This document shows, piece by piece, positions 783 through 33,597 of a stretch of 51,253 nucleotides of DNA. This DNA comes from Parcubacteria bacterium RAAC4_OD1_1. GTDB lineage: Bacteria > Patescibacteriota > Minisyncoccia > Phycocordibacterales > UBA9973. The number at the start of each line of letters is the position of its first letter. Within the stretch, counting starts at the first letter, position 1. Position numbers and translations under genes: made by a program. Under the pieces are notes generated by a model. It had not been told where the DNA came from. It was given only the letters and a program-made list of their open reading frames with translations, and searched no databases. The stretch lies in NCBI GenBank assembly GCA_000505065.1, contig AWSN01000001.1:262567-313819 (forward strand), read 5' to 3'.

Positions 783-815
783 ACTTGTATCGCCATAGTT
801 TTATACGAAGGCGTA

Positions 816-1727
816 TTATTTTAAATATTTACTAATGTTTATTTTATGCTCATCATAACTTTTCGCATAATGTACTTCTCCATCCTTATCGTGTAAATAA
901 TAAATATAAGAAGAATATTTTGGATTTAATGATGCTTTTATAGAAGAAAGTCCTGGATTACAAAGTGGCTTATCTGGCAATCCTTTTTCTTTATAAGTAT
1001 TCTTATCCACATCAACCTGAAGTGGCATACCTATGTCAAATCTTTTCCAAAGTATCCCAGAAATCATCTCTCTATCATTTCTTCCATTTGATTCTAGTTC
1101 AATAATAGAAGCCATAATTATTATATCATTAAAATTTCTTTTATTATTTTCTATATCTTCTTTAATTTCTTTAATTCTATTTTTAAAATTATCATTCATC
1201 TCTTTTATTATTTCAGAAGATGTAGCAAGAGGAAAAATAAGATATGTATCTGGAAAAAGATATCCTTCTTTAGATAAAGCCTCTTGGATAAATAAATCTC
1301 TTCTAAAACCAGATAATTTCTGTGCCAAGATATTTGCTATTTCTTCATTTGTAAGACCTTCTCTAAATGTTATTTTAATAGATTCTGTGTTGTAATCTCC
1401 TTGTGCTAACTGTAAAGCAACCCTAAAAACAGATGAACCTTTTTCAAATTTATAATCTCCTTTTTGAAGAGGAGAATTTAATGAAAAAATTCTAGAAATA
1501 AAATATAAGGTAAAATCATCTCTTACTATATTTTTTACTTCCAATTCTTTAGATATACTTTTTAAAGTATCTAAACTTGTAATATGAATAGTTACATCTT
1601 TATTATTAAGGGGGGCAGAAAAAACATAATATCCTAAAATTAGAAATATACAAATTCCAAAAAAGATATAAATATAAATAAAGAACTTCCTTTTATTTGG
1701 ATTATTTATATAAATAGTTTCTTCCAT
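816..1727 (-). CDS. mltG: Endolytic murein transglycosylase MltG (YceG-like)
   Basis: N-terminal TM helix followed by a YceG domain. Catalytic-region motif MASIIELE and C-terminal GLPDKPLCNPG match MltG as I know it. Confidence 0.85.
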   Translation of the reverse strand: MEETIYINNPNKRKFFIYIYIFFGICIFLILGYYVFSAPLNNKDVTIHITSLDTLKSISKELEVKNIVRDDFTLYFISRIFSLNSPLQKGDYKFEKGSSVFRVALQLAQGDYNTESIKITFREGLTNEEIANILAQKLSGFRRDLFIQEALSKEGYLFPDTYLIFPLATSSEIIKEMNDNFKNRIKEIKEDIENNKRNFNDIIIMASIIELESNGRNDREMISGILWKRFDIGMPLQVDVDKNTYKEKGLPDKPLCNPGLSSIKASLNPKYSSYIYYLHDKDGEVHYAKSYDEHKINISKYLK

Positions 1728-1733
1728 ATATTA

Positions 1734-3035
1734 TTATACCGGCAAATTTGAAGGAGGCTTTGCAATTTTTGTATCGACTCTCTTGAAGCTTGGAGTTTCT
1801 GAAACCATACCAGGAAAATGAAATAGAGTAGCAAGCTCTTCTATCGATAAGACAAAAAGTTGTGGTTTTCCTGATGGAAAAAAGATAGATAAAAGTGGTG
1901 GATATTTCAAATTATACTGAAGAGGTGGATGAAAAAAGACTCTAAGTCTATAAAAATCAAGCATTCTTTTTTTAATTTTTGTAAGAGCAAGACCTGTTGG
2001 ATCTGACCATGGAGCATCAAACTGAGTAGAATTCACACGCCAAAGCTCATTAATTCCTGGCATTGAAAATTGCCTAAACATAAGTCTGGATGATCTTCTT
2101 AAATTATTAAAAGAATCATCGTTGTGTAATTTTTTATCTGCAAGAGTGATGAGTCTTATACCACAATCAAAATGAATTTGATTTTGAACATCTGTGATAG
2201 CTTTAATAACTGGTCTATATTGCTCTGGCACATTTATCTGTTTACCAAAAGTTCCAATAATATTATCATTTTTCTGAGTACGAGTATATGGGGCCAGCAT
2301 ATTTTCTATATATTCATTTGCAGCTTCAGCAAAAGTAATATGACCCCCAGTGTTATGACTATGATATTTGATAATATTTTGCCTAACGATAATTTGTATC
2401 CATACTTGTTGTCCCTTAGGAAGTGAACCTAAATATTCAATAATTGGAGTAATTGGATCAATTTTAAATTCTTCTTTAACTCCTGTTTTCAAATCATCTC
2501 CAAAATTTTTATAAGTTTTTATTGGTAAGAAATCTTCTTTTCTTTTAGCAAATTCACAACCCCACATATTCCAATCTCCATCTTTTTTATATTGAGGAAT
2601 ATCAAAAGCATAATCGTCTACTTCAACAACTTTTGCTTGAGGATACTGAGCATATATTTGAGTTTCTACAAGATCACGAATGCGAGTAGGGGTACGTATG
2701 TAAAAATGAACTCTCCCATCTATAGAAGCTATCTCGAGTGAAAACCACATCCACGGAGCTCCAATTATAAATTCTTCCCAAAATCCTTTAAAGCTTTGAT
2801 GATAAAGTGCATTTGAAAAAATAAGCTCCATAGCGGCTGGACTTTTTATGACTTCTCTGGGAACTTGAATTTCAAGTAAAACCCACTTGATACCCATAAT
2901 AAAACGATCTTGCCTATAATCATGCCAAAGATGAAAAGCCAAAAAAGCAAGAGGTATAGGCATAAGATATCCTATTGCAACTAAAAGAAACTGAATTAGA
3001 TTAAAACTATGAGTAGCAAAAAATTGTTCGATCAT
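1734..3035 (-). CDS. Conserved hypothetical membrane protein (433 aa)
   Basis: Long ORF with N-terminal hydrophobic helices (FNLIQFLLVAIGYLMPIPLAFLAFHLW). It ends 6 nt before mltG, so it is probably co-transcribed. No catalytic motif recognised. Confidence 0.75.
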   Translation of the reverse strand: MIEQFFATHSFNLIQFLLVAIGYLMPIPLAFLAFHLWHDYRQDRFIMGIKWVLLEIQVPREVIKSPAAMELIFSNALYHQSFKGFWEEFIIGAPWMWFSLEIASIDGRVHFYIRTPTRIRDLVETQIYAQYPQAKVVEVDDYAFDIPQYKKDGDWNMWGCEFAKRKEDFLPIKTYKNFGDDLKTGVKEEFKIDPITPIIEYLGSLPKGQQVWIQIIVRQNIIKYHSHNTGGHITFAEAANEYIENMLAPYTRTQKNDNIIGTFGKQINVPEQYRPVIKAITDVQNQIHFDCGIRLITLADKKLHNDDSFNNLRRSSRLMFRQFSMPGINELWRVNSTQFDAPWSDPTGLALTKIKKRMLDFYRLRVFFHPPLQYNLKYPPLLSIFFPSGKPQLFVLSIEELATLFHFPGMVSETPSFKRVDTKIAKPPSNLPV

Positions 3036-3149
3036 ATAAATTAAATTGAATTAAAATACCCAATAAGTATAGCAATAATTATTAATCCCAAAATTATATA
3101 AATGATATTTATAATCCCTCTCTGATACATAAAACTATTATAACATAAA

Positions 3150-3185
3150 TAAAAGAAAACCTCATCAATAAAATATTGATGAGGT
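3150..3185 (-). terminator. Rho-independent terminator after the HTH gene
   Basis: Minus strand reads ACCTCATCAATAttttATTGATGAGGT (12-bp stem, 3159-3185) followed by TTTTCTTTT. Confidence 0.7.
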
Positions 3186-3205
3186 GAATAGCGGTATTTT
3201 GTTAA

Positions 3206-4237
3206 TTACAAAGCTCCATATAATCCATTTTTATTTTTCTTAAAATATTTAGAGTTCTGAAGATTTACTAAAATTGTATTCTTTTTTAAATATCTTTCTT
3301 TCATAACCTGCTCCACAATATCCTCTTTAGACATTGGACCATTTTTCTTTAAAAGTTCCTTAATGACATCTTTGACGACTCCCTTTTTATACCCCCATTC
3401 AGACAAAGCATAAATACCTCTACCCACAAGAACAAATCTATTATCTTTTATAAGTTCATTGTGGCAAGTAGCAGTATGACATTTCTTTGTAAAAGTATCA
3501 GCAATTGCTTTAGCAACTTCTCTAAAGTGCATAGGGCTACCATGCTTACGCATCATAAGAAAAGCATAATCTTTTATCCCTCTTGTTTTAATAGAAGAAG
3601 AATTTGACTTACCCCATTCACCAAGCGGATTCTTGGAAAGAGTTTTCGACATACTAAGCCATCTTTTTGCAATTTCTTCATCTTTATATTCTTCTGCAAG
3701 ATCTTTTACTTCTTCTAAAAATCTAGTGATAAGTTCTCCTTCTGGGATAAGCTCATCATCTGAAAGATTTTCAAAAAGATTTTTGAGGGATTTATGAATC
3801 TTATCTGAGACTTCATTATCCACACTCCATCTTGATTTAAAATGATCGTCTTCTTTATGTTTTGTAAAATCATCACTTAGAGTAAGATAAAGATGTATGT
3901 GATTTTGAGTAAGTCTATCCTTAGAAAGATGTTCTAATAAATCTTTTTCTGAGACAAGAGCCCCTAAAGAATGGACAATTTTTTTAAGCTCTTCAAACAC
4001 TGCTTTTTCTGCTTTGTAAGCATCAGATTTTCTTATCATAGAAAGGGCAACATTCTCTATCTGACGAACTCTTTCACGAGTAATACCATACTTTTTACCA
4101 ATTGCTTCTAGTGTCTTTCTTTCATAATCATTACCAACTCCAAATCGATCAACAATAACTTCATGTGCTCTTTGGGGTAATTCAGAAAGTATGTGTTTCG
4201 TAATTTGTTTTGGTTTAAATGTAAGAATGTTAGCCAT
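3206..4237 (-). CDS. Sigma-70 region-4-type HTH protein with C-terminal HARE-HTH-like winged helix
   Basis: N-terminal KTLEAIGKKYGITRERVRQIENVAL resembles a sigma region 4.2 HTH. C-terminal SPMHFREVAKAIADTF...GRGIYAL looks like a winged helix. Confidence 0.7.
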   Translation of the reverse strand: MANILTFKPKQITKHILSELPQRAHEVIVDRFGVGNDYERKTLEAIGKKYGITRERVRQIENVALSMIRKSDAYKAEKAVFEELKKIVHSLGALVSEKDLLEHLSKDRLTQNHIHLYLTLSDDFTKHKEDDHFKSRWSVDNEVSDKIHKSLKNLFENLSDDELIPEGELITRFLEEVKDLAEEYKDEEIAKRWLSMSKTLSKNPLGEWGKSNSSSIKTRGIKDYAFLMMRKHGSPMHFREVAKAIADTFTKKCHTATCHNELIKDNRFVLVGRGIYALSEWGYKKGVVKDVIKELLKKNGPMSKEDIVEQVMKERYLKKNTILVNLQNSKYFKKNKNGLYGAL

Positions 4238-9779: not shown

Positions 9780-12700
9780 TTATTTCAATTTCCCTCTAGT
9801 CAGTGGCCCTACTATTCCATCTCCTACTAATCCATTTGCTAATTGGAATTTAATAACAGCTTGTTTAGTTAAATTACCAAAATAAGTTGTTTCGTTGTTT
9901 AGTGAACCTGCTCCAGATGAAGATACAATATATCCGTGAATATTTAAATATTTCTGTAATTCTTTAACATCTTCTCCTTGCATTTTGTATTTTAGAGTTC
10001 TGATTAGAGTTAAAGGATTGGATGTATTGTTAGGATTATTTGTAATAGTTGGAGTGATGGGTGTGATTTGATTTGGAAATTCTTGTTTTAATTTCTCTGC
10101 TTCTTGTTTTTTACCTATAGATATTAGATTAAAATAGCGTGAAGATGCAGAGGAACCAGAAGATTTATATCTTGTAATTATTTCTACTGGTGAATCAGAC
10201 AAATAACTTATTGTTATAGAATGTAAAGTGGGAGTACTATCATTAGTAGTAGACAGAACAGCTTTTACTTGAATATATCTGTTATCTGGTGAAGTGATAG
10301 TTCCTGTAGATTCTACCCATTCACTCCATGATTCATCTGGGATAACAGTGCTTCCAGTCCTAGTATAATACAAAATAGAAGTGCCTGATGGTTTTGTTTC
10401 TTCTTTTGTTAAAGTCTCCCATTTAACACTCTGACTTGCACCAATAACCGAAGAGATAAAAGTTCCAGAATTAGAACCTTGCATTGGAAATTTGTAATTA
10501 GTAACCATAGGACTCCATGCTGTATCTCTACCACCTATAATATATAAATTATTATCTACAACCTGAACTACTGATCTGTGTATTGCCTGAGGAAGAGCGT
10601 CTAAATATGAAGTCCATGTATTAATTGTTATATCATAAACAAATATATCATCTACAGTTTCATAACCCTCATCTGTTCCACCAATATAATAGAATAAATT
10701 GCCAATAGAAACAGAAGTTCCACCAGACCGAGGGGCAGGAATAGGACTTAAATTGGTTTGCCATGTATTACTCTCAATATTATATGAAATTAATTCATTA
10801 GAGAAAGAAATTCCACCATCAATTTGACCTCCAGCAATATACATAATTCCATTTATTATTTGAGAAGTTGTTCCTGCCATTTTGGTTACAGGAGATGGTT
10901 CAAGGAAGCTCCAACTTTCTCCATCAAATACTTCTATTGTTTGACTTGGATTACTACTTGAAATAGGAGAACCACCAGCAACATATATCTTACCATTATA
11001 AACTCCTCCGGTTGCTCCAATTCTTGCAATATTCATAGATGGTCCAACCGTCCAAGAATCATTACTTGGATCATAAATCTCCATAGTGCTCTCACCTTCC
11101 CAGTTTACGTTTCTTCCACCAATAATATATAATTTATTATTTAAAACAACAGAAACCGCTCCGGTTCTCGCAATAGACATAGGATTTAATTCTACCCAAG
11201 AATCATTACTTGGATCATAAACAATAGTGGAATTCAAATCTTCCCAATTTTCTGTTCCCCCAGCAATATATATTTTATTATTTATAACTCCATTACCAGC
11301 TGATATACGAGCTATAGGTAAAGGTTCCTTTTCTTCCCAATTTGAAAAATCTAAAACTAAAACAGAATTAATTGATAAATCTCCAGAAGATATAGTTTCA
11401 TCAAGTGAAGTTAAAGTCCCATCTTCAAAATCTTGTTGTGAAGTAATCATAGCCGAGCCATTTTCTGTTTGAATTCTAGGACAAGGTAAAATGGTTATAT
11501 AAGTTTCTGACCAATCTGTTTCATTATTATCTAAACCCTTTCCTTTTACTCTAAAAGAATATTCTGCATCACAAGTTAATCCAGTAAATTGATAAGTTTC
11601 AATTGTAATCCAATCTGAATTAGTATTGTTAGTAGTATTTTCTATATAGTAGCTAGGTGTTGTTCCTTCATACGTAAGAGTTAAACTTGTTTTAGAATCA
11701 TATGTAACATTGATGATGTATGGTGTAGATGAACATATAGATGTGGTAAATGTTTGATCACTCCCATATGAAGTACCAACATAGTTTGTGGTAATAGCTC
11801 TATAGTGATATGTGGTATTACAAGTTAAAGATGTAATATTTTTAGAATAGATGCCATTGTAGTATGAACCTGTTTCTTTAGAAACTTGTCCATATGAAGT
11901 CGTAAAACCATATTCGAATCCTCTTTCCCCCACTTCCCCACCATCATTTATGATTTCTCCATTTAAAGTGACTGTTGTTGGAGTGATAGATGAAGATAAA
12001 CCTGTAGTAACACTAGATATTGTAGGACAGATAGATGTGGTAAATGTTTGATCACTCCCATATCCTGTTCCCTTACTATTAGTTGCATATGAACGATAAT
12101 GATATGTCGTTTCGCAAGAAAGTCCTGTGAGACTAGTAGAGAATGTTCCTATATTAAAATCTCCGTTTTCTGTTGTAGTTGTTTCGTAGCTATCTGTGAG
12201 ACCATATTCAAATCCACGAATGGTTGGATTCTCTCCACCAATGTCTGTGATTTCTCCATTTAGAGTGACTGTTGTTGGGGTGATAGATGAAGATGGATTG
12301 GTAGAGAGAGATGGAGATAATGATGAAAGTAATATTGAAACAGTGTTATCAGCTCTATTTGATACCACTAAATCAGGATAGGGATCAGAATTGAATAAGT
12401 CAGAGATGACAGAGTTTGGATTATTTCCAGTTACATAATCAACTTTAGTCCCAAATGTGCCATCTCCATTACCAAGAAATATAGAGATAGTGTAATTAAA
12501 ATAATTAGTTACTGCCAAATCAGGATATGAATCAAAGTTGAATAAACCAGAGGTGACAGAGTTTGGATTATTTCCAGTTACATAATCAACTTTAGTCCCA
12601 AATGTGCCATCTCCATTACCAAGGAGGATTGAGATAGTATTACTAGATTGATTCACTGTCACTAAATCAAGGTATGAATCAGAGTTAAATAAACCGGAAA

Positions 12701-13421
12701 TAATGAACCATGGATTATTTCCAGTTGCATAATCAACCTTAGTCCCAAATGTACCATCTCCGTTTCCAAGAAATATTGAAACGGTGTGGTTACTATAATT
12801 TGCTATCACTAAATCAAGGTATGAATCAGAGTTAAATAAACCGGAAATAATGGAGTATGAAATAAATCCAATTTCATAATCAACCTTAGATTGAAATGTG
12901 CCATCTCCATTACCAAGGAGTACTGAAAAACTATAACTACCAAGATGCGTTACCGCTAAATCAAGATATGAATCAGGGTTGAATAAGCCGGATGTGACAG
13001 AATATGGACCACTTCCAGTTCCATAATCAACTTTAGATTGAAATGTGCCATCTCCATTACCAAGGAGGATTGAAACAGTGTTACTACTATAATTAGTTAC
13101 CACCAAATCAAGATATAAATCAGAGTTGAAAAGTCCGGAGATGACAGAATATGGACCACTTCCAGTTACATAATCAACCTTAGATTGAAATGTGCCATCT
13201 CCATTACCAAGGAGGATTGAAACAGTGTTGCTCCCATTATTCGTTACCGCTAAATCAAGATATGAATCAGAGTTGAATAAGCCTGTGGTGACAGAACGTG
13301 GAGAAGTTCCAGTTACATAATCAACTTTATTAACAAAAAGTCCTTCTGCAAAAACATTTTTTGATAATAAAAAAGTTATAATAATAAAAAAAAATAAAAA
13401 TATATTTTTAAATTTAAACAT
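9780..13421 (-). CDS. Giant secreted mosaic protein: signal peptide, 7 FG-GAP/VCBS-like repeats, 3 Ig/FN3-like modules, Kelch-type beta-propeller, C-terminal peptidoglycan-binding domain
   Basis: 1213 aa. N-terminal signal/TM. Seven 49-aa repeats VDYxTG...LFNSDSYLDLxVTN...VSILLGNGDGTFxxK. Three TVTLNGEI...TTYHYR modules. Repeated NNKIYIAGG/LYIIGG Kelch-like blades. C-terminal GEDVKELQKYLN...VGDGIVGPLT resembles PG_binding_1. Confidence 0.85.
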   Translation of the reverse strand: MFKFKNIFLFFFIIITFLLSKNVFAEGLFVNKVDYVTGTSPRSVTTGLFNSDSYLDLAVTNNGSNTVSILLGNGDGTFQSKVDYVTGSGPYSVISGLFNSDLYLDLVVTNYSSNTVSILLGNGDGTFQSKVDYGTGSGPYSVTSGLFNPDSYLDLAVTHLGSYSFSVLLGNGDGTFQSKVDYEIGFISYSIISGLFNSDSYLDLVIANYSNHTVSIFLGNGDGTFGTKVDYATGNNPWFIISGLFNSDSYLDLVTVNQSSNTISILLGNGDGTFGTKVDYVTGNNPNSVTSGLFNFDSYPDLAVTNYFNYTISIFLGNGDGTFGTKVDYVTGNNPNSVISDLFNSDPYPDLVVSNRADNTVSILLSSLSPSLSTNPSSSITPTTVTLNGEITDIGGENPTIRGFEYGLTDSYETTTTENGDFNIGTFSTSLTGLSCETTYHYRSYATNSKGTGYGSDQTFTTSICPTISSVTTGLSSSITPTTVTLNGEIINDGGEVGERGFEYGFTTSYGQVSKETGSYYNGIYSKNITSLTCNTTYHYRAITTNYVGTSYGSDQTFTTSICSSTPYIINVTYDSKTSLTLTYEGTTPSYYIENTTNNTNSDWITIETYQFTGLTCDAEYSFRVKGKGLDNNETDWSETYITILPCPRIQTENGSAMITSQQDFEDGTLTSLDETISSGDLSINSVLVLDFSNWEEKEPLPIARISAGNGVINNKIYIAGGTENWEDLNSTIVYDPSNDSWVELNPMSIARTGAVSVVLNNKLYIIGGRNVNWEGESTMEIYDPSNDSWTVGPSMNIARIGATGGVYNGKIYVAGGSPISSSNPSQTIEVFDGESWSFLEPSPVTKMAGTTSQIINGIMYIAGGQIDGGISFSNELISYNIESNTWQTNLSPIPAPRSGGTSVSIGNLFYYIGGTDEGYETVDDIFVYDITINTWTSYLDALPQAIHRSVVQVVDNNLYIIGGRDTAWSPMVTNYKFPMQGSNSGTFISSVIGASQSVKWETLTKEETKPSGTSILYYTRTGSTVIPDESWSEWVESTGTITSPDNRYIQVKAVLSTTNDSTPTLHSITISYLSDSPVEIITRYKSSGSSASSRYFNLISIGKKQEAEKLKQEFPNQITPITPTITNNPNNTSNPLTLIRTLKYKMQGEDVKELQKYLNIHGYIVSSSGAGSLNNETTYFGNLTKQAVIKFQLANGLVGDGIVGPLTRGKLK
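12300..13331 (-). repeat. Seven tandem 147-nt coding repeats (FG-GAP-like blades)
   Basis: The block aatgtgccatctccattaccaag recurs about every 147 nt on the plus strand and encodes the GNGDGTF part of each blade. Confidence 0.8.
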
Positions 13422-23615: not shown

Positions 23616-24584
23616 CTAATTTAAGATTAAATTAAATAGATATCCAGTAAAAATTATACCCGTACTTACTATTCCAGCAAAAATAATTATCAACCTAGTT
23701 TTCATTACTTTCTTAAGAATCATAAATTCAGGAAGTGATAATGCTGTTACTGACATCATAAATGCAAGTGTAGTACCCATAGAGACACCTTTCTCAGTTA
23801 AAGCAGATACAAGAGGTATGACTCCAGCGGCATTCGAGTACAAAGGAATACCTATTATTACAGCAAGTGGAACAGCATACCATTTATCACTTCCTGCATA
23901 TTGGGCTAAGAAATCAGTGGGTAGATAACCATGAATCCAGGCACCTAAACCAATACCTATTAATATGTATGGCCAGACTTTTTTAAATATATTTAAAGTA
24001 TACTTCACTGCATAAATAACTCTTTCTTTTATTGTCATACTAGGTAAATAAATACCCCCATTCTTATTTATAGTATTTTGATAAACAAATGGTTCTACAA
24101 GGTTTTCTATTTTTAAATGTTCAATAACAATACCTGAAATGATAGAAATAATAAGACCAGAGACTACATAGATAAGTGCAATCTTCCAACCAAATAAACC
24201 AAGGAGTAAAACAAGGGCCACTTCGTTAATCATTGGAGAGGCAATAAGAAAAGAAAATGTGGTTCCCAATGGGATCCCAGTCTGAACAAACCCTAAAAAT
24301 AAAGGAATAGCTGAACATGAACAAAATGGAGTAATAATACCCAAAAGTGAGGCAAGAATATTACTAACATATTTATTCTTACGAGAAAGAATTGACCTGA
24401 TTTTTTCTGGTGGTAAATATGAACGAATTATTGAAACAACAAAAATAATGACAACTAAAAGAAAAAATATTTTGATAGTATCAAAAATGAAAAAATTTAT
24501 TGTATCTGCGAGTAAAGTTCCAGGTTGAATATTAAAAACAACATATGTTAACCAATCTGCAAATAGTTGTATTGGGTAAAACAT
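23616..24584 (-). CDS. Multi-pass permease (DUF318/ArsP-like family)
   Basis: 322 aa, about 8-9 hydrophobic helices, FCSCSAIP motif. Operon partner of a thioredoxin-like protein and ArsR. Confidence 0.8.
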   Translation of the reverse strand: MFYPIQLFADWLTYVVFNIQPGTLLADTINFFIFDTIKIFFLLVVIIFVVSIIRSYLPPEKIRSILSRKNKYVSNILASLLGIITPFCSCSAIPLFLGFVQTGIPLGTTFSFLIASPMINEVALVLLLGLFGWKIALIYVVSGLIISIISGIVIEHLKIENLVEPFVYQNTINKNGGIYLPSMTIKERVIYAVKYTLNIFKKVWPYILIGIGLGAWIHGYLPTDFLAQYAGSDKWYAVPLAVIIGIPLYSNAAGVIPLVSALTEKGVSMGTTLAFMMSVTALSLPEFMILKKVMKTRLIIIFAGIVSTGIIFTGYLFNLILN

Positions 24585-24586
24585 AA

Positions 24587-24826
24587 TTAAATATTTTTTG
24601 AAATAATATCTTTCAATTTTTCTTTATCTGGAAGTATACCAACCAAGATTGGCTTGTCATCGATTGTAAGAATTGGACTACTAATAAGACCAAGAGTAAT
24701 AATTTTATTTATATCTGTGCTATATAAAACTGCATCTTTTATTCCCATCTCAGAAATAACTACCTTTGTAAGCTCAAATAAATTTGAGCATTTTTTACAT
24801 CCTGAACCAATAACTTCTATTTTCAT
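24587..24826 (-). CDS. Thioredoxin-fold small redox-active disulfide protein
   Basis: 79 aa. N-terminal GSGCKKCS CxxC motif. Overlaps the arsR stop by 4 nt. Confidence 0.75.
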   Translation of the reverse strand: MKIEVIGSGCKKCSNLFELTKVVISEMGIKDAVLYSTDINKIITLGLISSPILTIDDKPILVGILPDKEKLKDIISKNI

Positions 24827-25095
24827 ATTATTTTTTTAGTTAATATTGATTGATAATTTTTAATAGCTTCTTCATTACGATAATATATTATTTTATTTCC
24901 TTCCTTTTTAATCTTTAATAAATTTAAATTTTTTAATACTTTTAAATGGTGCGAAGATAAATTTTGAGGTAACTTCAGTTTGGGATGTATATCACAAGCA
25001 CATTTTTCTCCATTTTTTAATAATGACAAAATTGCTAACCTATTAGGTTCTGAAATGGCTAACAAATATTTTTTTAAATTTAATAATTTATTCAT
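24823..25095 (-). CDS. ArsR/SmtB-family transcriptional repressor
   Basis: LAISEPNRLAILSLL...CACDI...LSHHLKVLKNLNLL is a typical ArsR wHTH with a CxC metal/redox site. Start moved to ATG 25095; the track ORF extends to 25140. Confidence 0.8.
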   Translation of the reverse strand: MNKLLNLKKYLLAISEPNRLAILSLLKNGEKCACDIHPKLKLPQNLSSHHLKVLKNLNLLKIKKEGNKIIYYRNEEAIKNYQSILTKKII

Positions 25096-25103
25096 AAAAA
25101 TAT

Positions 25104-25127
25104 CTATATCAATAGATATTGATATAG
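25104..25127. promoter_or_regulatory. Inverted repeat upstream of arsR (probable autoregulatory operator)
   Basis: CTATATCAAT-agat-ATTGATATAG: perfect 10-bp arms, 9 nt upstream of the proposed arsR start. Confidence 0.55.
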
Positions 25128-25168
25128 TATCATCAAACAATTATAAATACAATATTTAATTTTATGCA

Positions 25169-25381
25169 GTGACCCTACCGGGAACGTGAGTACACTTATC
25201 TCCCTCGACTAAAACTTTTTCGTCAAAAAGTTTTGTCTGGGCACCAGCTCATCTATTTTTCTTACTAGGAAAAATATGATTCCGCTGTTCGATTCCCGGA
25301 CGCGAGATATGCAGATATCTCGCTTAGGGTCACACCTAAAAATACCACTCTTGACGAGTGTCTATTTTTATGGTGTGACCC
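25169..25381. repeat. Boundary module E1: tRNA-Glu 3'-end copies in alternating orientation enclosing a multi-hairpin fold
   Basis: gtgaccctaccggga (25169-25183) pairs with tcccgg (25294-25299) and tagggtcac (25325-25333). Internal hairpins lie at 25211-25234, about 25254-25276 and 25302-25323. GGGTCACACC (25327-25336) pairs with GGTGTGACCC (25372-25381) around a further hairpin. Confidence 0.7.
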
Positions 25382-25878: not shown

Positions 25879-26052
25879 GGAACCCTACCGGTAATCGCGA
25901 GTACGCTTTCGGTCACGCATAATTTTCTGCTGAAAATTTGCTCTACCTCGCCTCGGCTCGTCGGCCTTCGGCTTTCGATTCTCTCCGTAAGGAGATCACG
26001 AGCGATACAAAAATAACCCACTGGTGTGGATTATTTTTGATCGTGTGACCCT
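25879..26052. repeat. Boundary module E2 (diverged paralog of E1)
   Basis: ggaaccctaccggtaatcgcgagtac aligns with E1 gtgaccctaccgggaa-cgtgagtac. It shares ttcgattc, a hairpin at the same place (TCTCCgtaaGGAGA), the AAAAATAA...TTATTTTT hairpin with compensatory stem changes (CCAC/GTGG versus CACTC/GAGTG) and a terminal gtgtgaccc. Confidence 0.65.
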
Positions 26053-26194: not shown

Positions 26195-27307
26195 CTATAA
26201 AATATCTTTGTCTAGTTCCTCTTCATTTTCAGGAATACTTAGTGATGTTGGTAATTCATCATCAGTAAATATATATTTATTAAACTTAGAATAATGTAAG
26301 TGCATTAAAATATCAGAAACTATTTTTTTCTTATCCTGAAAACTAATCTCTGCCTCAAAAGAGTATTCCTTCACAATTTTTAATTCTGGAAATGTCTTTT
26401 TAACAGAGGAGTAAATATCATACATAAAATTTCTATTATCTATGTTTCCTACCAGATAAATATTAGGGTAACCATTTTGTATCCAACTTTCTATAATTTT
26501 TCTTCTACCTTCAATTTTTCTAGCTTCTCTTACACCCTTAGTTGCTATTATTCTAACTGCACATCTTATATATTTTCCTGTAAAAGTTTCTGGTAATGTC
26601 ATGTCTCCAACTTGTCTTTTAGAAAAGTTTTCTAAAAAATCAGTAAATTCTTTAATTTCTTTTGTTATTGCTTCATTGGGTTTTTCAATATAAATAGTAT
26701 TACCTAAAAATGTAAGTTCTTGCACTAATATTGGGAAAAATAATCCTACCTTCTCAATATTGATATATTGTTTAATAAAATCACTAACCTTATCGTGCTT
26801 ATTTAGTTGAGGAATAAAATAACTACTAATAAAATATTCCAAAGCTTCAGGACTAGCTTTTTCTAAAATAAGTTTTACAGAGAATAAATCGAGTGATACT
26901 TTTTGACTTTTTGTTATATGAACCTTGGATCGTCTTAATAAAGTTTCTGATACAAATAAATGAGATGCATGAACAAGGTTTTTCACTTTATGTTTTTTGT
27001 CTCTCATTACAAGAATAATCTTTTCTTTCTCCCAAATTACCTCTTCTTGATTCCTACCAGCCCATTTTATAGAAATTTTAGGAAAATTAGTAGCTGAATT
27101 ATTATTTAATGTCTCTACAAAAGAATTGACTTTTGATTGCACCTCATATTTAGTAGCTTCATATTTAAAACCTTTCCATATCTTATTTAATAATTTGAAA
27201 ATAATAGCTAACCACTTTTCAGTCTCATCGGGATGTTTATATAAATAAACACCAACTATTGTTGGAATACCAAGCCCTGTAAAGAATGCAATGATGATAT
27301 CTATCAT
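26195..27307 (-). CDS. Hypothetical protein (370 aa), N-terminal hydrophobic helix; candidate defence/abortive-infection effector
   Basis: Long ORF. Its start overlaps the stop of the upstream 101-aa ORF (ATGA-type overlap at 27304-27307). No motif recognised by eye. Confidence 0.7.
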   Translation of the reverse strand: MIDIIIAFFTGLGIPTIVGVYLYKHPDETEKWLAIIFKLLNKIWKGFKYEATKYEVQSKVNSFVETLNNNSATNFPKISIKWAGRNQEEVIWEKEKIILVMRDKKHKVKNLVHASHLFVSETLLRRSKVHITKSQKVSLDLFSVKLILEKASPEALEYFISSYFIPQLNKHDKVSDFIKQYINIEKVGLFFPILVQELTFLGNTIYIEKPNEAITKEIKEFTDFLENFSKRQVGDMTLPETFTGKYIRCAVRIIATKGVREARKIEGRRKIIESWIQNGYPNIYLVGNIDNRNFMYDIYSSVKKTFPELKIVKEYSFEAEISFQDKKKIVSDILMHLHYSKFNKYIFTDDELPTSLSIPENEEELDKDIL

Positions 27308-27573
27308 ATATTTAAATCTAAATTAGTAGAGCTTTTATTATCTAAATACTTTATTAATGTTTCTATACACGTAGGGTTATCACAGATAAAACTAAATGTA
27401 TCTGATTGAGGGAGTATAGAGTGTATGTTTTCTAATGTAATTGTAGAATTACAAAACTTACAAATTACTTTATTTTCAAGTAATTTATCATAAAATCCAA
27501 TTTTTTTTAATACATCAATTAAATCATCTTCGTGTATTACATCAATATCTTTTTTATCTAATTCCATATACAT
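27304..27573 (-). CDS. Small Cys-rich (zinc-ribbon-like) hypothetical protein
   Basis: CKFC...(23 aa)...CDNPTC four-Cys pattern. Translationally coupled to the 370-aa ORF. Start uncertain (ATG 27573 or 27567; the track uses TTG 27609). Confidence 0.55.
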   Translation of the reverse strand: MYMELDKKDIDVIHEDDLIDVLKKIGFYDKLLENKVICKFCNSTITLENIHSILPQSDTFSFICDNPTCIETLIKYLDNKSSTNLDLNI

Positions 27574-27649
27574 AATAATATAACAAATATCTGGTCTTGT
27601 AAACACCAATTAGTTTATAAATATATTTATTTCTGTTATAATATTGCTT

Positions 27650-28498
27650 ATGGAAACTAACCTTTTGAAAGCAATTAGAAATATAATAGCTAATCCAAGT
27701 AATGATTTACTTTCCCAATATAGGTCTTTAAATCGTATGAATTCTATGGGGGAAGCTTTGGAATTTTATGTTAAAGATATATTTTGTGATTCCTTAAAAG
27801 AAGATAATTCTGATAAAGGTAAAATATACTCTGAATATTTTTCTTACTTAGGAAACCAGAATAATCCTCCAGATATTATTATAAAAAATGGTGATGCAAT
27901 AGAAGTTAAAAAACATATTGGAGCTCGTGCAAGTGGCTTGGCATTAAATAGTTCATACCCAAAAGATTATTTATATGCTGATAGTCCAATGATTACCACA
28001 GCGTGTAGAGGATGTGAGAATTGGGAAAAGAAAGACCTTTTGTATGTTATAGGAAGTATTGTTGATAGTAAAATAAAATCTTTATGGTTTGTTTATGGAG
28101 ATTGTTATGCTGCTTCTAGAGAAATTTATGAGAAAATAAAAGATGCTATATCAGATGGAGTCAATTCTTTGCCTGATATTGAATTTGGAGAAACAAACGA
28201 ATTAGGAAGAGTAAATAAAGTTGACCCACTTGGAATAACAGATTTAAGAATTAGAGGAATGTGGGCTATTAAACATCCCAATAAAGTATTTGATTATATA
28301 TCTGAAATTTCTAATGAAGCTGATTTTAAAGTTAATGCTATTATGCTATCTTCCAAATATAATTCTTTCCCAGAGAGTGATAGAAAAGAGTTAGAGTCTT
28401 TAATTTCTCATAATTTAATAATAAATGATATAAAAATAAAATCACCTAACAACCCTGCTAAATATTTAAATGCTAAGTTAATAAGATTCTCAAAGTAA
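27650..28498 (+). CDS. Type II restriction endonuclease, PD-(D/E)XK (NgoPII/HaeIII-partner-like)
   Basis: NNPPDIIIKNGDAIEVKK fits PD...(D/E)xK. Lies directly upstream of, and co-oriented with, a C5-methyltransferase. Family name is from recollection only. Start taken at ATG 27650. Confidence 0.7.
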   Translation: METNLLKAIRNIIANPSNDLLSQYRSLNRMNSMGEALEFYVKDIFCDSLKEDNSDKGKIYSEYFSYLGNQNNPPDIIIKNGDAIEVKKHIGARASGLALNSSYPKDYLYADSPMITTACRGCENWEKKDLLYVIGSIVDSKIKSLWFVYGDCYAASREIYEKIKDAISDGVNSLPDIEFGETNELGRVNKVDPLGITDLRIRGMWAIKHPNKVFDYISEISNEADFKVNAIMLSSKYNSFPESDRKELESLISHNLIINDIKIKSPNNPAKYLNAKLIRFSK

Positions 28499-28505
28499 TT
28501 ACTGT

Positions 28506-29528
28506 ATGAAATTAGTATCTTTATTTACAGGTGCAGGAGGTTTAGACTTAGGCTTTGAAAGAGCTGGTTTTGATATTATATGGGCAAATGAATTTGATAA
28601 AGTTATATGGGAGACATTTGAAAAAAACTTTCCTAAAACAAAGTTAGACAAGAGAAGTATTGTTGATATTCCAACTCCTGAAATTCCTTTTGCTGACGGA
28701 GTTATTGGAGGTCCTCCTTGTCAGAGCTGGAGTGAAGCTGGAGCTGGACGTGGAATAAATGATAAAAGAGGTCAATTGTTTTTTGAATATATAAGATTTT
28801 TAAAAGATAAACAACCTGCTTTCTTTTTAGCTGAAAATGTCTCAGGTATTTTATCTGCTCGTCACAGTGAAGCATTTAATGAAATTATTAAGCAATTTGA
28901 AGATGCTGGCTATAATGTCTCACGTAAACTTCTCAATGCTAATGATTATGGAGTTCCAGAAGACAGATTGCGTATAATTATTGTTGGCTATCATAAAAAG
29001 AAAGTTGGTTTTTCTTTTGAATTTCCTGAACCATTACCACATAAACCGACCCTTAGAGAAGCTATCTTTGATTTGAGGTTAGCTAAGCCAGCAAAACCAT
29101 TTAATAAAACTAATGGTAGTGATTTAAAAATACCTAATCACGAATATTTAACTGGTGGATTTTCTACAATGTATATGTCTCGTAATCGTGTTCGTTCTTG
29201 GGATGAACCATCTTTTACTATACAAGCTGGAGGTCGTCATGCTCCTATTCATCCACAGGCTCCAAAGATGAAATTTGTAGAACAGAATAAAAGAATATTT
29301 GTTCCAGGTAAGGAAAATTTATATAGAAGATTATCTGTTAGAGAATGTGCTAGGATACAAACTTTTCCTGATGACTTTATTTTCTATTATAAAGATGTGG
29401 CAGATGGGTATAAAATGATAGGCAATGCAGTTCCAGTTGAATTTGCTTTTAATATAGCTAAAAAAATATACTCTGACCTATCTAAAATAAAATCGGTTTC
29501 TAATAGTAAAAAAGTTGTTAAAAAATAA
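28506..29528 (+). CDS. DNA (cytosine-5)-methyltransferase, M.HaeIII-like (probable GGCC specificity)
   Basis: Motif I LFTGAGGLDLGF, motif IV GGPPCQSWS, ENV (FLAENV), motif X YKMIGNAVPV. The variable region (PNHEY...FSTMYMSRNRVRSWDEPSFTIQA) closely matches my memory of M.HaeIII. Confidence 0.93.
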   Translation: MKLVSLFTGAGGLDLGFERAGFDIIWANEFDKVIWETFEKNFPKTKLDKRSIVDIPTPEIPFADGVIGGPPCQSWSEAGAGRGINDKRGQLFFEYIRFLKDKQPAFFLAENVSGILSARHSEAFNEIIKQFEDAGYNVSRKLLNANDYGVPEDRLRIIIVGYHKKKVGFSFEFPEPLPHKPTLREAIFDLRLAKPAKPFNKTNGSDLKIPNHEYLTGGFSTMYMSRNRVRSWDEPSFTIQAGGRHAPIHPQAPKMKFVEQNKRIFVPGKENLYRRLSVRECARIQTFPDDFIFYYKDVADGYKMIGNAVPVEFAFNIAKKIYSDLSKIKSVSNSKKVVKK

Positions 29529-29532
29529 ATAG

Positions 29533-29905
29533 TAAAATGCAACACATTTATGTTGCAAATACAGCATAATGAACTCTGGTGTTTTACCTGCTAACTCTGG
29601 GCTTTTGAATACGGTCATTTTAACCGTAAATACGGTCTCAGAATAACCGTGTTTATCGGTTTAATAAATGAGAGAAATAATAGTGGAAAGCTATTAAATA
29701 ATAGCTACTTGAATAAAGGGAGTTTGCCTATAAATAAAGGATCTTGAATAATGGTGAAAAACTATCAGTTGATGGGTCTGTGAATAATGCTGATTCCACA
29801 CTAAATAGTGTTAAATTCTGAATCCCAAAATGCAGGTGTTTTACCAGTAAATACAGGTGAAATGAATACTAGGTTTTAGCTAGAAAATTCTAGTGAATTA
29901 TTTGC
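29533..29905. repeat. Tandem array of about 10 units, period about 35-36 nt, with two short conserved motifs and two variable segments per unit
   Basis: tGAATAa-type motif at 29607, 29641, 29674, 29711, 29746, 29782, 29820, 29864 and 29895. tAAATAa-type motif at 29557, 29628, 29663, 29696, 29732, 29803, 29849 and 29885. No ORF; fills the whole intergenic gap. Confidence 0.8.
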
Positions 29906-30399
29906 TAGTTATATGAGTCTATTATACCGTCATTATTGGTATCATAATAACAGCTCGGAGTATTGTCATGCCAGCAGTATTGATACTTAATTCCATTACC
30001 ATAATTAGATGGGTTTGCAGAATCAGGTTTACCATTTAAATAAATAAGCATTTCATATGTCATACCTATCCATATTCTTTCATCAACCAATCTATCACAA
30101 TCTTCTTTTTTCCATGTAGGATGTTTCTCGCATAATTTTCCAGCAGGAGTAATTTTCCATTTTGCTAATTCCTCAGGAGAGATCGTTTTAGCTGGTGGTT
30201 GAGTTGTAGTAGTTGTAGTTTTATCACTACTGAAAAGACCAGAAGAAAATATCATAAATACTATTACAGCTAAAATAACAGCTACTATCTTTTTTTCTTT
30301 TGTCCAAACATACATTTTACCTTGGCAATGAGGACATCTAGTTGCCATGGCATCTATTTCTTTTTTGCAGTGGGAACATTTCTTTGTTTTTGTTTCCAT
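29905..30399 (-). CDS. Zinc-ribbon membrane protein with small extracytoplasmic domain
   Basis: CSHCKKEI...CPHCQG zinc ribbon, one TM helix (IVAVILAVIVFMIFSSGLF), a Thr-rich linker, and a C-terminal GMTYEMLIYLNGKPDS BamE/SmpA-like motif. Confidence 0.7.
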   Translation of the reverse strand: METKTKKCSHCKKEIDAMATRCPHCQGKMYVWTKEKKIVAVILAVIVFMIFSSGLFSSDKTTTTTTQPPAKTISPEELAKWKITPAGKLCEKHPTWKKEDCDRLVDERIWIGMTYEMLIYLNGKPDSANPSNYGNGIKYQYCWHDNTPSCYYDTNNDGIIDSYN

Positions 30400-31398: not shown

Positions 31399-31770
31399 AT
31401 GATTAAAAATAGAAAGAACAATGCAGTTGGTTATTGCAGGTTTCTAAAAACAGAAAAAGGAAATAACTATTCATTGGAGCAACAGAAAGAAGCTATAGAA
31501 AAATATGCTTCAGAAAAAGATTATCACTTGGTTAGAGTATTCCAAGATGCAGAAATAAGTGGCAGAGAATTTAATAGAGAGGGGCTTAAAGAAATGATGG
31601 AATTTGTTTCTTTCTGTGAAGACAGTGCTCATGTATTAATTGTGTCTGATGTATCTAGATTATTTATAAAGTTAAATAGTAAATGGTATTCATTGAAAAG
31701 ATTTTTGGATGACAATAAGGTTCGTTTAGAATCTTTAATTCATCAAATGAATAGGTATATCAAAAAATAG
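31399..31770 (+). CDS. Resolvase-domain protein lacking the catalytic serine (123 aa)
   Basis: AVGYCRFLKTEKGNNYSLEQQKEAI aligns with the neighbour's AVIYLRVSSREQITNFSLESQEKVC. The RVSS nucleophile motif is replaced by RFLK, and there is no recombinase or zinc domain. Confidence 0.65.
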   Translation: MIKNRKNNAVGYCRFLKTEKGNNYSLEQQKEAIEKYASEKDYHLVRVFQDAEISGREFNREGLKEMMEFVSFCEDSAHVLIVSDVSRLFIKLNSKWYSLKRFLDDNKVRLESLIHQMNRYIKK

Positions 31771-31872
31771 AAATTATTGTTTCTTTACAGAGAGATTTTT
31801 GAATAAAGTCTCTCTGTAATTGAGACAATCATTTTGAGATTACAGATAAAAGAGTTTAAATTAGATTCAATC

Positions 31873-33414
31873 ATGATAGGTAAAAAAATAGAAAAACCAA
31901 ATAATGCAGTAATCTATCTTAGAGTTTCTTCTCGTGAACAAATAACTAACTTCAGTTTAGAAAGTCAGGAAAAAGTATGTAGAGAATATTGTAGAAGAAA
32001 TGGCTACGAAGTTTTACAAGTTTTTAGAGAAGAGGGAGAATCCGCAAAGACTGTAAACAGAACAGAGTTACAAAAAATGATAAGGTTCTGTGAGATAAAT
32101 AAAAGACAGATTAGTAAAATCGTTTTTTATAATGTGTCTAGAATGTCTAGAGTGGCAGCTGATTATTTAATCTTAAAAAGAAATTTTAAGAAGCATGATA
32201 TATCAGTTGTTTCTGCAACGGAAGGATTTGATGAATCTCCATCTGGTAAATTACAGGAAACAATGCTTTCTGCTTTTGCTGAATTTGATAATAACCAAAG
32301 GTCAGATAAGACAAAGGAAGGTATGCAAACTCGCTTACTTAAGGGTCTATGGAGTGGTATTGCTCCTTGGGGTTATTTTAATGGTCGTGATAAAGATGAT
32401 ACTAAAATTATTATTCCACACCCAGATAAAGCTCCTATTGTAAAAATTTTATTTGAAAAGTATGCTACTGGAAAATATTCTTTTAAAGAACTAGCTAGAA
32501 TGGCTAATAAGCAAAATGTAAAAACTATGCATGGATCTAAAATGTGTAAACAGCTTGTAGCTAAGATAGTTAAAAATCATATCTATTATGGAAGAATGAT
32601 TGTGTCTAAATTAGACATTGATATTATGGGTAAGCATGAACCTATTATCACAAAGGAATTATTTGATAGAGCTAATAGCAATAGAAGTAGCTCTAGGAAA
32701 GGATTACCTCGTAGTAGAGAAAATAAAGATTACCCATTAAGAGGTATTAAATGTGGTTGTTGTGGTAAAAGTATTTCAGGTGGAAAATCTAGAAGTAAAA
32801 CTGGAAAATATTATCAGTATTATAGTTGTGTTAATAGTGAGTGTGAAAAAAGAAAAGCTATAAGGAAAGAGGCTTTAGAAAATGACTTCACTAGCTTATT
32901 AAGTGAACTCACTCCAAACAATGACTACTTAGATGTTCTTGGTGAAGCTATAAAGTTAGCTCATAAGAATGAATTAAATTATGTGATAAATGAAGAAAGA
33001 AAATTTAAAGGGATATTAACTGAATTATCTGATAAGAAAAATAAATTATTGGATCTTCGTATTGATGGAAAAATAAATGATGAAGATTTTATTTTAACCA
33101 GAGATAGAATAAATTCTAAGATAAGTGAAGCAGAAAAAGAATTAAGTATGCTGTCTTCACCAGAAATAGAAATAAATAATGTCATTGATGCTGGAATAAA
33201 ATTCATAAAAGACCTCCCAAGGAACTGGAAAGACTTAGAAGTGAAAGATATCAGAATCTTAATTGGGGTTTTATTTAAAAATTTATTAATTTATTCATAC
33301 CCCGACATTAAAACCCCTGAAGTATGCTGTATTTACAACATAAAACCTGAATTATTGAGTGATAAGACCCATTGGGTGACCCTACCGGGAATCGAACCCG
33401 GATTACCGGCTTGA
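31873..33414 (+). CDS. Large serine recombinase (integrase)
   Basis: YLRVSSREQ catalytic motif, recombinase domain, zinc ribbon CGCCGK...YYSCVNSEC, C-terminal coiled coil. The last about 13 codons (WVTLPGIEPGLPA) are antisense of tRNA-Glu. Track start is TTG 31834. Confidence 0.9.
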   Translation: MIGKKIEKPNNAVIYLRVSSREQITNFSLESQEKVCREYCRRNGYEVLQVFREEGESAKTVNRTELQKMIRFCEINKRQISKIVFYNVSRMSRVAADYLILKRNFKKHDISVVSATEGFDESPSGKLQETMLSAFAEFDNNQRSDKTKEGMQTRLLKGLWSGIAPWGYFNGRDKDDTKIIIPHPDKAPIVKILFEKYATGKYSFKELARMANKQNVKTMHGSKMCKQLVAKIVKNHIYYGRMIVSKLDIDIMGKHEPIITKELFDRANSNRSSSRKGLPRSRENKDYPLRGIKCGCCGKSISGGKSRSKTGKYYQYYSCVNSECEKRKAIRKEALENDFTSLLSELTPNNDYLDVLGEAIKLAHKNELNYVINEERKFKGILTELSDKKNKLLDLRIDGKINDEDFILTRDRINSKISEAEKELSMLSSPEIEINNVIDAGIKFIKDLPRNWKDLEVKDIRILIGVLFKNLLIYSYPDIKTPEVCCIYNIKPELLSDKTHWVTLPGIEPGLPA

Positions 33415-33448
33415 AAAGCCGATGTCCTAACCGTTAGACGATAAGGCC
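33377..33448 (-). tRNA. tRNA-Glu (anticodon UUC)
   Basis: Reverse complement GGCCTTATCGTCTAACGGTTAGGACATCGGCTTTTCAAGCCGGTAATCCGGGTTCGATTCCCGGTAGGGTCA folds as a 72-nt cloverleaf. Anticodon loop is TTTTCAA. Confidence 0.9.
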
Positions 33449-33597
33449 AATATATTTAATTTTACACAATTCACTTAATAAACCTTGCAAGCACATCGGC
33501 TTTACTTATTTTTGAAAAGCCTTGCTTATTGTCTCATAAATATCGACAATTCCTTCGGACCAGATAAAAAGTAAAGCAGTTTACTTTTTATTCCAAT

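Follow-up and report, generated by a model that had tools for sequence, protein, structure and literature searches.

The gene pair and its control region

In the 51,253-nucleotide stretch of the genome of Parcubacteria bacterium RAAC4_OD1_1 analysed here (contig AWSN01000001.1, positions 262,567 to 313,819; hereafter the window), two overlapping genes on the minus strand adjoin a restriction-modification (R-M) system, and it is the likely function of this gene pair that we address. The large gene (26195..27307) is an open reading frame (ORF) for a protein of 370 amino acids (aa), while the small gene (27304..27567), delimited by its ORF and by homologue alignment, most likely encodes 87 aa including four conserved cysteines (Cys4) that are putatively zinc-binding. 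The tetranucleotide ATGA at 27307-27304 is common to the TGA stop of the small gene and the ATG start of the large one, an overlap of 4 nucleotides (nt). Divergently from the pair, on the plus strand, run the genes for an NgoPII-type type II restriction endonuclease (REase; 27650..28498, open from TTG 27644; Pfam RE_NgoPII 1.2e-111, PADLOC REase_II 2.1e-113) and for its partner, a C5 cytosine DNA methyltransferase (MTase; 28506..29528; Pfam DNA_methylase 5.2e-96, TIGR00675 5.5e-80). The original prediction, made from the sequence of this DNA, regarded the pair as a candidate defence module on a tRNA-linked island; the 370-aa ORF, the ATGA overlap and the divergence from the REase gene on which it drew are all present in the sequence and the ORF list.

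The small-gene ORF is open as far as TTG 27609, which would give the 101 aa originally proposed. We consider a start at ATG 27567 most likely instead, since homologues begin aligning to the small protein at M15 of the 101-aa form and the best minus-strand promoter-like site, TTTACA-17-TATTAT (27603-27575), lies inside the supposed N-terminal extension. Only 8 nt separate the end of this site from ATG 27567, and an mRNA starting from it would possibly be leaderless or carry a short leader. The divergent intergenic region (27568..27649) measures 82 nt with ATG 27567 and the REase ATG at 27650, or 34 nt with both TTG starts, values that replace an earlier estimate of 40-75 nt. It holds two back-to-back promoter-like sites, the second of which, TTTATA-17-TG-TATAAT on the plus strand (27614-27642), precedes the REase ATG. 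Both are consensus matches only, and such matches are not above chance in this region (14 found, 12.7 expected from shuffles).

Two proteins in strict pairs

A word-based search for the large protein returned 23 clusters, all unannotated, and an exhaustive profile search extended the family to 1,124 representatives (E<=0.001), of which 303 score E<=1e-30; a representative is a cluster at 50% identity. Wherever upstream DNA was available, a homologue of the small protein is encoded immediately 5' of the large gene and on the same strand (21/21 loci of a first set and 41/41 of a metagenome set). Co-occurrence in other genomes, whose failure the original prediction had named as a reason to reject the module, is found in all 46 groups that remain after collapse at 90% identity and in six distant loci, namely one in a phage, one each in Solirubrobacteraceae and Coriobacteriia, and three more in actinobacteria. 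The cultured temperate phage Marinitoga camini virus 1 (MCV1), from the Thermotogae host group, carries the pair as UF08_10/UF08_11. Strict pairing and translational coupling argue that the two proteins act together.

Two observations on individual loci concern this pairing. A Solirubrobacteraceae metagenome-assembled genome (MAG; G401) holds two diverged family copies, at C21:110021-111856 and C40:108562-109578, each with its own small partner; one is a cold-shock-domain fusion following tig-clpP-clpX and the other a form of 437-454 aa. At locus L042 the two genes might be taken for a natural fusion, but a TAA stop at 484-486, one codon before the in-frame ATG of the large gene, rules this out.

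The best-conserved feature of the small protein family is its cysteines. The motifs CKFC...CDNPTC pointed out in the window copy are present and correspond to a CxxC...Cx4C pattern, in which C36, C39, C62 and C67 (87-aa numbering) are kept in 43/43, 42/43, 43/43 and 42/43 small proteins, respectively; the partner in the Solirubrobacteraceae MAG has the pattern CxxC...Hx4C. An N-terminal VHExDL motif, situated in a helix, is also conserved. The small protein obtained only noise-level scores against Pfam, NCBIfam, PADLOC and PHROGs, neither the protein itself nor its family profile retrieved anything significant from the sequences of the PDB, and no helix-turn-helix (HTH) match was found. A role as nucleic-acid mimic was discarded, since the net charge runs from -9 to +12 across the family (median -1) instead of being acidic throughout.

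The large protein is equally isolated in sequence: at E<=1 it has no counterpart in Pfam, NCBIfam or PADLOC, its PHROGs match is at noise level, no PDB sequence is retrieved at E<=10 and nothing significant there with the family profile, and a search of a plasmid collection gave no match. The earlier statement that neither protein has an assignable motif therefore agrees with all of these library searches. The large protein could be approached through structure prediction instead. A model built with 23 sequences was mediocre (predicted local distance difference test, pLDDT, 72), and an AlphaFold2 model built with 114 diverse relatives reached a pLDDT of 92.6 and a predicted template modelling score (pTM) of 0.89. 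This second model, together with hydropathy, places a hydrophobic N-terminal helix at residues 2-24, followed by a basic stalk of two long helices (25-70), a three-stranded sheet (77-102), a helical core (106-232) and, with the support of Foldseek, a C-terminal domain of Alba fold (about 238-340). The hydrophobic helix of the original prediction is real and conserved, 94% of the 114 relatives reaching a Kyte-Doolittle value of at least 1.6 over 19 residues. Median net charges are +4 for the segment that follows it and +5 for the Alba-like domain. By the positive-inside rule, this charge pattern is consistent with a protein anchored N-out/C-in whose body would lie in the cytoplasm and bind nucleic acid.

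The C-terminal domain shows the order beta-alpha-beta-alpha-beta-beta with a long beta3-beta4 hairpin (strands at 241-253, 282-288, 309-323 and 326-339, helices at 257-277 and 289-305). In Foldseek comparisons with the PDB it matched more than 20 Alba/Sac10b structures (probability 1.0, template modelling (TM) score 0.70-0.77, root-mean-square deviation (rmsd) 2-3 A, about 90 columns) and, more weakly, SpoVS and Rpp20/25. In the model, these roughly 100 residues adopt the Alba fold and are basic, like Alba/Sac10b and Rpp20/Rpp25, yet they are not a sequence member of the Alba family: the large protein has no Pfam Alba match (E<=1), and the profile of 114 relatives finds no Alba chain among the PDB sequences. 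They are also part of a larger protein, 370 aa long, membrane-anchored and of bacterial or phage origin, rather than a free chromatin or RNase P subunit. Longer relatives carry C-terminal fusions to four S1 domains (5.6e-33) or to cold-shock/OB_RNB repeats (CSD 1.2e-12), and further fusions to a NusA-like KH domain (KH_5, 5e-14) or to TPR repeats. DNA or RNA binding by the Alba-fold domain is predicted from its net charge and from the S1, CSD and KH fusions; given the fold and the RNA- or single-strand-binding character of these fusions, the ligand is probably RNA, or else single-stranded DNA.

Outside this domain, no structural relative was found in the PDB at E<=0.001 by Foldseek. The single full-length match, in BFVD, is an uncharacterised siphovirus protein (E 7.7e-19, TM score 0.73). 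Within the core, N110, K128, D140, E197, E217 and R231 are nearly invariant; R248 and Y284 also rank among the most conserved polar residues in the alignment of relatives, and the window copy has all eight. Such conservation suggests that the polar core is a novel type of centre for catalysis or switching. An RNase III-like reading of the core was considered and rejected. The RNase III signature is ERLEFLGD; in the core motif QELxFLG (residues 196-202) the catalytic acidic positions are misaligned (Q196, T199 and a variable residue 203), and Foldseek returned no RNase III match.

The distribution of the family is sporadic. The genome of the window, a single contig of 693,530 bp that is 95.7% complete, has one copy, and the named genome loci lie nearly all in MAGs of the Patescibacteria or candidate phyla radiation (CPR). 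At E<=1e-10 the family occurs in 0/400 other genomes sampled across the phylum; in the class of the actinobacterial carrier, 3/151 genomes have a match. Because of these counts, the family is a rare accessory and not housekeeping. One might picture a housekeeping, membrane-associated factor of RNA metabolism, as S1, CSD and KH fusions are typical of RNA-processing enzymes and one actinobacterial copy follows tig-clpP-clpX, but the distribution comes close to refuting this notion, which we regard as scarcely tenable for a gene pair that sits on islands, in phages and in R-M operons. Homology to a housekeeping or phage structural family, which would have spoken against the original prediction, was not found in the library searches either.

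The gene order itself invites comparison with type II toxin-antitoxin systems, which likewise consist of two coupled, co-directional genes; the small gene comes first, and this order is kept in all loci. An addiction module that stabilises islands, with the large protein as a latent toxin, the small zinc protein as its antidote and any effect on phages as secondary, would suit genes that are strictly paired and coupled, occur sporadically and sit on mobile islands next to R-M systems, themselves addictive. We nevertheless judge this rather unlikely. Searches of Pfam, NCBIfam, PADLOC and PHROGs connect neither protein with a known toxin or antitoxin, and a multidomain protein of 370 aa with a predicted RNA-binding tail would be atypical as a simple toxin. 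The idea also overlaps largely with a role in defence, since many toxin-antitoxin systems act in abortive infection.

Restriction-modification genes and mobile elements around the pair

The neighbourhood of the pair was analysed in 43 non-redundant loci with at least one flanking ORF. Identified R-M genes directly abut the pair in 14 of them, or 15 with the tentative L038, at gaps of 2-123 nt or with one small gene in between; within 5 kb, R-M genes are found in 19-20 of the 43. Type I is represented by HsdM/S/R at L041 (6 nt from the pair) and by L045. Type II systems comprise the NgoPII REase and C5 MTase of the window, which are divergent from the pair, an MvaI/BcnI REase with an N6/N4 MTase at L047 (30 nt), and two cases of TdeIII: at L012/L031 this REase and an N6/N4 MTase lie 12 nt away, and at L021 the pair stands between the MTase and the REase with gaps of 2-3 nt. 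The type IIG group includes an Eco57I/MmeI-like enzyme at L016 (28 nt) and a type II REase with an Eco57I-type MTase at L030 (10 nt). Type III systems adjoin the pair at L004 (Mod/Res, with one 150-aa gene between) and L017 (Res/Mod, convergent, 46 nt). A further class is that of C5 MTase and Vsr, with both genes directly upstream at L008, 5 nt away at L044 and 3 nt away at L046, a C5 MTase 2 nt away at L033, and L076 as an additional member. An N6/N4 MTase is found 123 nt from the pair at L034.

L038 owes its tentative place to a homologue of the unannotated ORF that accompanies the L008 methylase, and at five further loci (L045, L064, L018/L025, L063 and the phage locus L011) R-M genes are no more than 5 kb away. 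The pattern is repeated in one of three further actinobacterial loci outside the 43, where a C5 MTase and a 361-aa ORF precede the pair. A PADLOC scan of the 140 nearest flanking ORFs was dominated by models for DNA methyltransferases, and the copy in a Coriobacteriia MAG is followed by HNH_2, MazG-like, SLFN-g3 helicase, HSDR_N_2 and NERD genes, that is, by an island of the defence type.

This adjacency exceeds what the abundance of such genes would lead one to expect. The 693-kb genome of the window has 3 MTase loci, and across 100 genomes of the phylum we counted about 2.2 PF01555 and 0.3 PF00145 matches (about 2.5 DNA MTases in total) per genome of about 900 genes. On this rough baseline, a random gene would adjoin an R-M locus by chance in about 1% of cases, as against 14-15 of the 43 loci. 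The association with defence neighbourhoods, another point on which the original prediction could have failed, is therefore borne out by these counts as well as by the Coriobacteriia island. A maximum-likelihood tree of 46 large proteins scatters the loci with adjoining R-M genes across the clade of the window (14/29 rows). Near-identical pairs accompany different R-M systems: type I at L041, type IIG at L016 and type III at L017, and likewise TdeIII at L031 and a C5 MTase at L033.

Several features of these loci are recorded here in their own right. The two further MTase loci in the genome of the window, which are without the pair, consist of two tandem C5 MTases and of a C5 MTase beside an N6/N4 MTase (G000:C1:573712-575794 and 598080-599760). 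L008 (1206-1964) and L038 (284-1078) each encode, beside the pair, an unannotated protein of about 250 aa that is 53% identical between the two loci and is a candidate for a restriction endonuclease not yet characterised. At L004 (9113-10436), downstream of the type III R-M genes, the pair is followed by overlapping genes for an NfeD/S49 peptidase-like and a DUF2726/DUF559 nuclease-like protein, an arrangement that is possibly a larger composite defence operon. At L045 (6729-7823), where the pair is itself downstream of a type I system, a 364-aa PIN_12-domain protein is encoded 93 nt 3' of it.

Such close linkage raises the question of whether the pair might serve restriction directly, as a dedicated helper or regulator that times the REase when a new host is entered, or one that tethers incoming DNA to the membrane and so lets restriction outrun methylation. 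Operon-like gaps of 2-30 nt to R-M genes in at least nine loci, the position between M and R genes at L021 and the control region that the pair and the REase have in common in the window would all accord with such a task. We consider it distinctly improbable, however: the pair accompanies mechanistically unrelated R-M types and is also found in phages and on islands that lack any R-M system, and the domains fused to its relatives are those for RNA or single strands rather than for the handling of double-stranded DNA. The small protein is, moreover, not an R-M controller (C) protein of the HTH kind; it is a Cys4 protein, always found with the large gene and often without R-M genes.

Mobile elements form the second recurrent context. 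An all-against-all comparison of flanking ORFs found only the two genes themselves to be conserved. Their next commonest neighbour is a large serine recombinase, upstream and divergent, in six loci (the window, L001, L014, L018, L020 and L060; five in the comparison itself, six with L060). Tyrosine integrases, a rolling-circle Rep (L001), Replic_Relax (L035), ParB (L042), a Mutator transposase and IstB occur as further neighbours. Phage copies are flanked by terminase and phage MTase genes, and in MCV1 and L011 the pair is placed between the replication and the packaging genes.

The window offers an example of such an element. The gene for its large serine recombinase (31834..33414, plus strand), upstream of the pair and divergent from it, overlaps with its last codons the 3' end of a tRNA-Glu(UUC) gene (33373..33449, minus strand), the integration target. 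The 16 nt of the tRNA-Glu 3' end at 33376-33391 recur exactly at 25169..25184, an att-like outer boundary of the island, and as an 81% copy at 25879..25894, a possible inner end of the element 300 nt beyond the stop of the large gene. The repeats and the recombinase support the view that the pair, the R-M system and the recombinase share an element, about 8.2 kb long, that has inserted at tRNA-Glu, in keeping with the tRNA-linked island of the original prediction.

These surroundings would also be compatible with a function in the life cycle of the mobile element itself, the R-M genes being fellow cargo. The pair might then be a membrane-tethered organiser of nucleic acid or a regulator for replication, entry or packaging. 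A precedent is p16.7 of phage phi29, a membrane organiser of DNA replication that has an N-terminal membrane helix, a helical stalk and a C-terminal nucleic-acid-binding domain. The large protein resembles it in the order of helix, long stalk helices and predicted binding domain, and family members are phage-borne too, near replication genes in MCV1 and between the replication module and terminase there and in L011. The divergent recombinases and the adjoining Rep, Replic_Relax and ParB genes point in the same direction. On the other side, no sequence or fold match links the large protein to p16.7 or to any replication protein; it is much bigger, has a conserved polar core and an obligatory zinc partner, and many of its copies reside in chromosomal R-M operons without visible replication or recombination genes (L012, L021, L033, L041, L046 and L047), near-identical pairs flanking different R-M types. 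We therefore hold a life-cycle function to be unlikely, if worth serious consideration.

Further genes in and around the island were noted. A 123-aa ORF lies directly 5' of the recombinase (31399-31770, plus strand), and within the same island a gene at 29905-30399 (minus strand) encodes a 164-aa protein with an N-terminal zinc-ribbon (weak Pfam matches) and one hydrophobic helix; it matches PHROG 14275 (6.7e-6). Although it, too, is small and combines zinc and membrane features, its sequence shows no relationship to the pair. Just beyond the boundary (24823-25140 and 23616-24826, minus strand) are an ArsR-type HTH regulator (Pfam HTH_5 2.7e-11), a 79-aa ORF and a 322-aa multi-pass membrane protein, probably a permease, which look like chromosomal metal or redox cargo outside the element. 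A tandem array at 12327-13329 has a 147-nt unit in 6.8 copies at 79% matches and can also be read with periods of 294 and 441; its probable product is a protein domain in repeated copies. In L013, from a MAG labelled Bacteroidetes, a 1,056-aa WD40-repeat protein (707-3877) ends about 80 nt before the pair. By eye it also has a small-GTPase-like P-loop and a cyclase-like C-terminus, of which Pfam scored only WD40, and it resembles STAND-like conflict proteins.

A possible adjunct to restriction

The nearest precedent in logic is arguably PrrC, an RNA-cleaving anticodon nuclease whose gene lies within the EcoprrI type Ic R-M locus, together with its relative RloC (PMC3458546, PMC2610378). In both cases an accessory gene lies in or beside an R-M operon, has an RNA-directed flavour and could plausibly form a second line coupled to restriction. 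At L021 the pair even lies between the M and R genes, as prrC does between hsd genes. PrrC/RloC nucleases are characteristically kept silent by the R-M enzyme until an anti-restriction factor triggers them. The pair differs in having neither an ABC-type NTPase nor an anticodon-nuclease domain (there is no Pfam, NCBIfam or PADLOC match and no P-loop among the conserved positions), in consisting of two genes, one for a zinc protein, in its predicted membrane anchor, and in its association with all R-M types instead of one cognate type I enzyme.

Schlafen proteins offered a second comparison, as weak fold matches to SLFN5, 11, 12, 13 and 14 and to the vaccinia Schlafen-like protein were obtained; both families are sporadic and associated with defence islands, and the Coriobacteriia copy adjoins a helicase of SLFN-g3 type. 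Membership was nevertheless rejected. For the two-lobed Slfn core fold, the Foldseek probability dropped from 0.82 with the weak model to at most 0.41 with the model of pLDDT 92.6 (TM score 0.14-0.18, rmsd above 9 A), and the 370-aa protein has no AlbA_2 match in Pfam at E<=1 and no PADLOC match. The catalytic motif of the Schlafen C-lobe, Ex4(E/D)xK (PMC13056530), occurs in 24/114 relatives, scattered and with no more than 9 in one column. Kiwa (KwaA/KwaB) is a two-gene defence system with a membrane-associated component and a nucleic-acid-binding activity. It shares with the pair the combination of membrane and nucleic-acid binding in two genes, and an action on incoming nucleic acid at the membrane would fit here too. 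The pair matches no PADLOC model, that of Kiwa included; here one protein is both anchor and binding domain, its partner being a small, soluble zinc protein. The pair thus belongs to none of these groups, neither to the Schlafen, PrrC/RloC or C proteins nor to the known toxin-antitoxin modules or the systems in PADLOC-DB v2.0, because the features that define them were looked for and are absent.

We give an even chance to the reading that the pair is one functional unit, a mobile accessory travelling with R-M systems, integrative elements and temperate phages, which acts against phages or mobile elements as an adjunct to restriction. A role in genetic conflict that complements restriction is proposed because of the sporadic, mobile distribution and the strong excess beside R-M systems of every type. 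The original view of a candidate defence module is thereby retained in part: the R-M and defence neighbourhoods and the strict co-occurrence speak for it, whereas for the large protein the evidence points to nucleic-acid binding rather than to a pure membrane effector.

Several observations weigh against this reading. More than half of the informative loci have no R-M gene nearby, the flanks of some are housekeeping (L007, L015/L024, L036 and L070), and R-M systems and the pair may merely share mobile islands. The recurrence with serine recombinases, Rep, Replic_Relax, ParB and phage modules fits a life-cycle role of the mobile element equally well. Both proteins match 0 families at E<=1 in PADLOC-DB v2.0, and since no PADLOC model is matched, the argument for defence is one of guilt by association; nor is a nuclease or other catalytic fold recognised in the large protein. 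The sample is biased as well, as CPR metagenomes supplied most of the loci and a single subfamily supplied the search patterns: these patterns were derived from alignment A1, the broad alignment A4 being too diverse, and they favour the subfamilies of the window. The pair is common on integrative elements and phages, so that functions of mobile elements other than defence are possible. Taken together, the life-cycle, addiction and restriction-helper explanations carry a considerable, though less than even, probability.

If the pair is an adjunct to restriction, its mode of action might be envisaged as follows. The N-terminal helix would anchor the large protein to the membrane on the cytoplasmic side, and its basic Alba-fold tail would bind nucleic acid of the invader, most likely RNA or single strands, a binding in which the extra S1, cold-shock or KH domains of relatives would take part. 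The polar cluster of N110, K128, D140, E197, E217 and R231 in the novel helical core might execute or transmit the response, either catalytically or by switching conformation. Kept at a fixed ratio by translational coupling, the small Cys4 zinc protein is supposed to bind the large protein as a regulator, either silencing it or conferring trigger specificity.

As the pair is promiscuous toward R-M types and is linked to all of them instead of to one cognate enzyme, a specific protein-protein guard seems less likely than a response to the consequences of failed restriction. We speculate, as an unlikely extension, that the pair is a generic companion of restriction, a widespread but so far unrecognised two-protein system with a new catalytic or switching fold. 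It would monitor RNA or single strands of the invader at the inner membrane face and, once restriction has been evaded, respond as a second line of defence, for instance by shutting off translation or arresting growth. It could then accompany any R-M type, since what it reads would be the failure of restriction. Full-text literature searches found no description of such an R-M companion.

Should the role as a defence adjunct hold, prokaryotic immunity would gain more than 1,100 clusters (at 50% identity), all from a family absent from Pfam, NCBIfam, PADLOC and PHROGs and with a core fold that has no solved relative. It would also be the second example, after PrrC, of an RNA-oriented function in restriction operons, here across all R-M types, and this breadth of linkage bears on how layered immunity is organised. 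The pair is among the few candidate systems concentrated in the CPR/Patescibacteria, whose tiny genomes encode little defence besides R-M, and the copy in MCV1 provides a tractable natural system in a cultured temperate phage of Marinitoga. Even if it serves the maintenance of mobile elements, the combination of a zinc protein with a membrane-Alba protein would represent a new building block of integrative elements.

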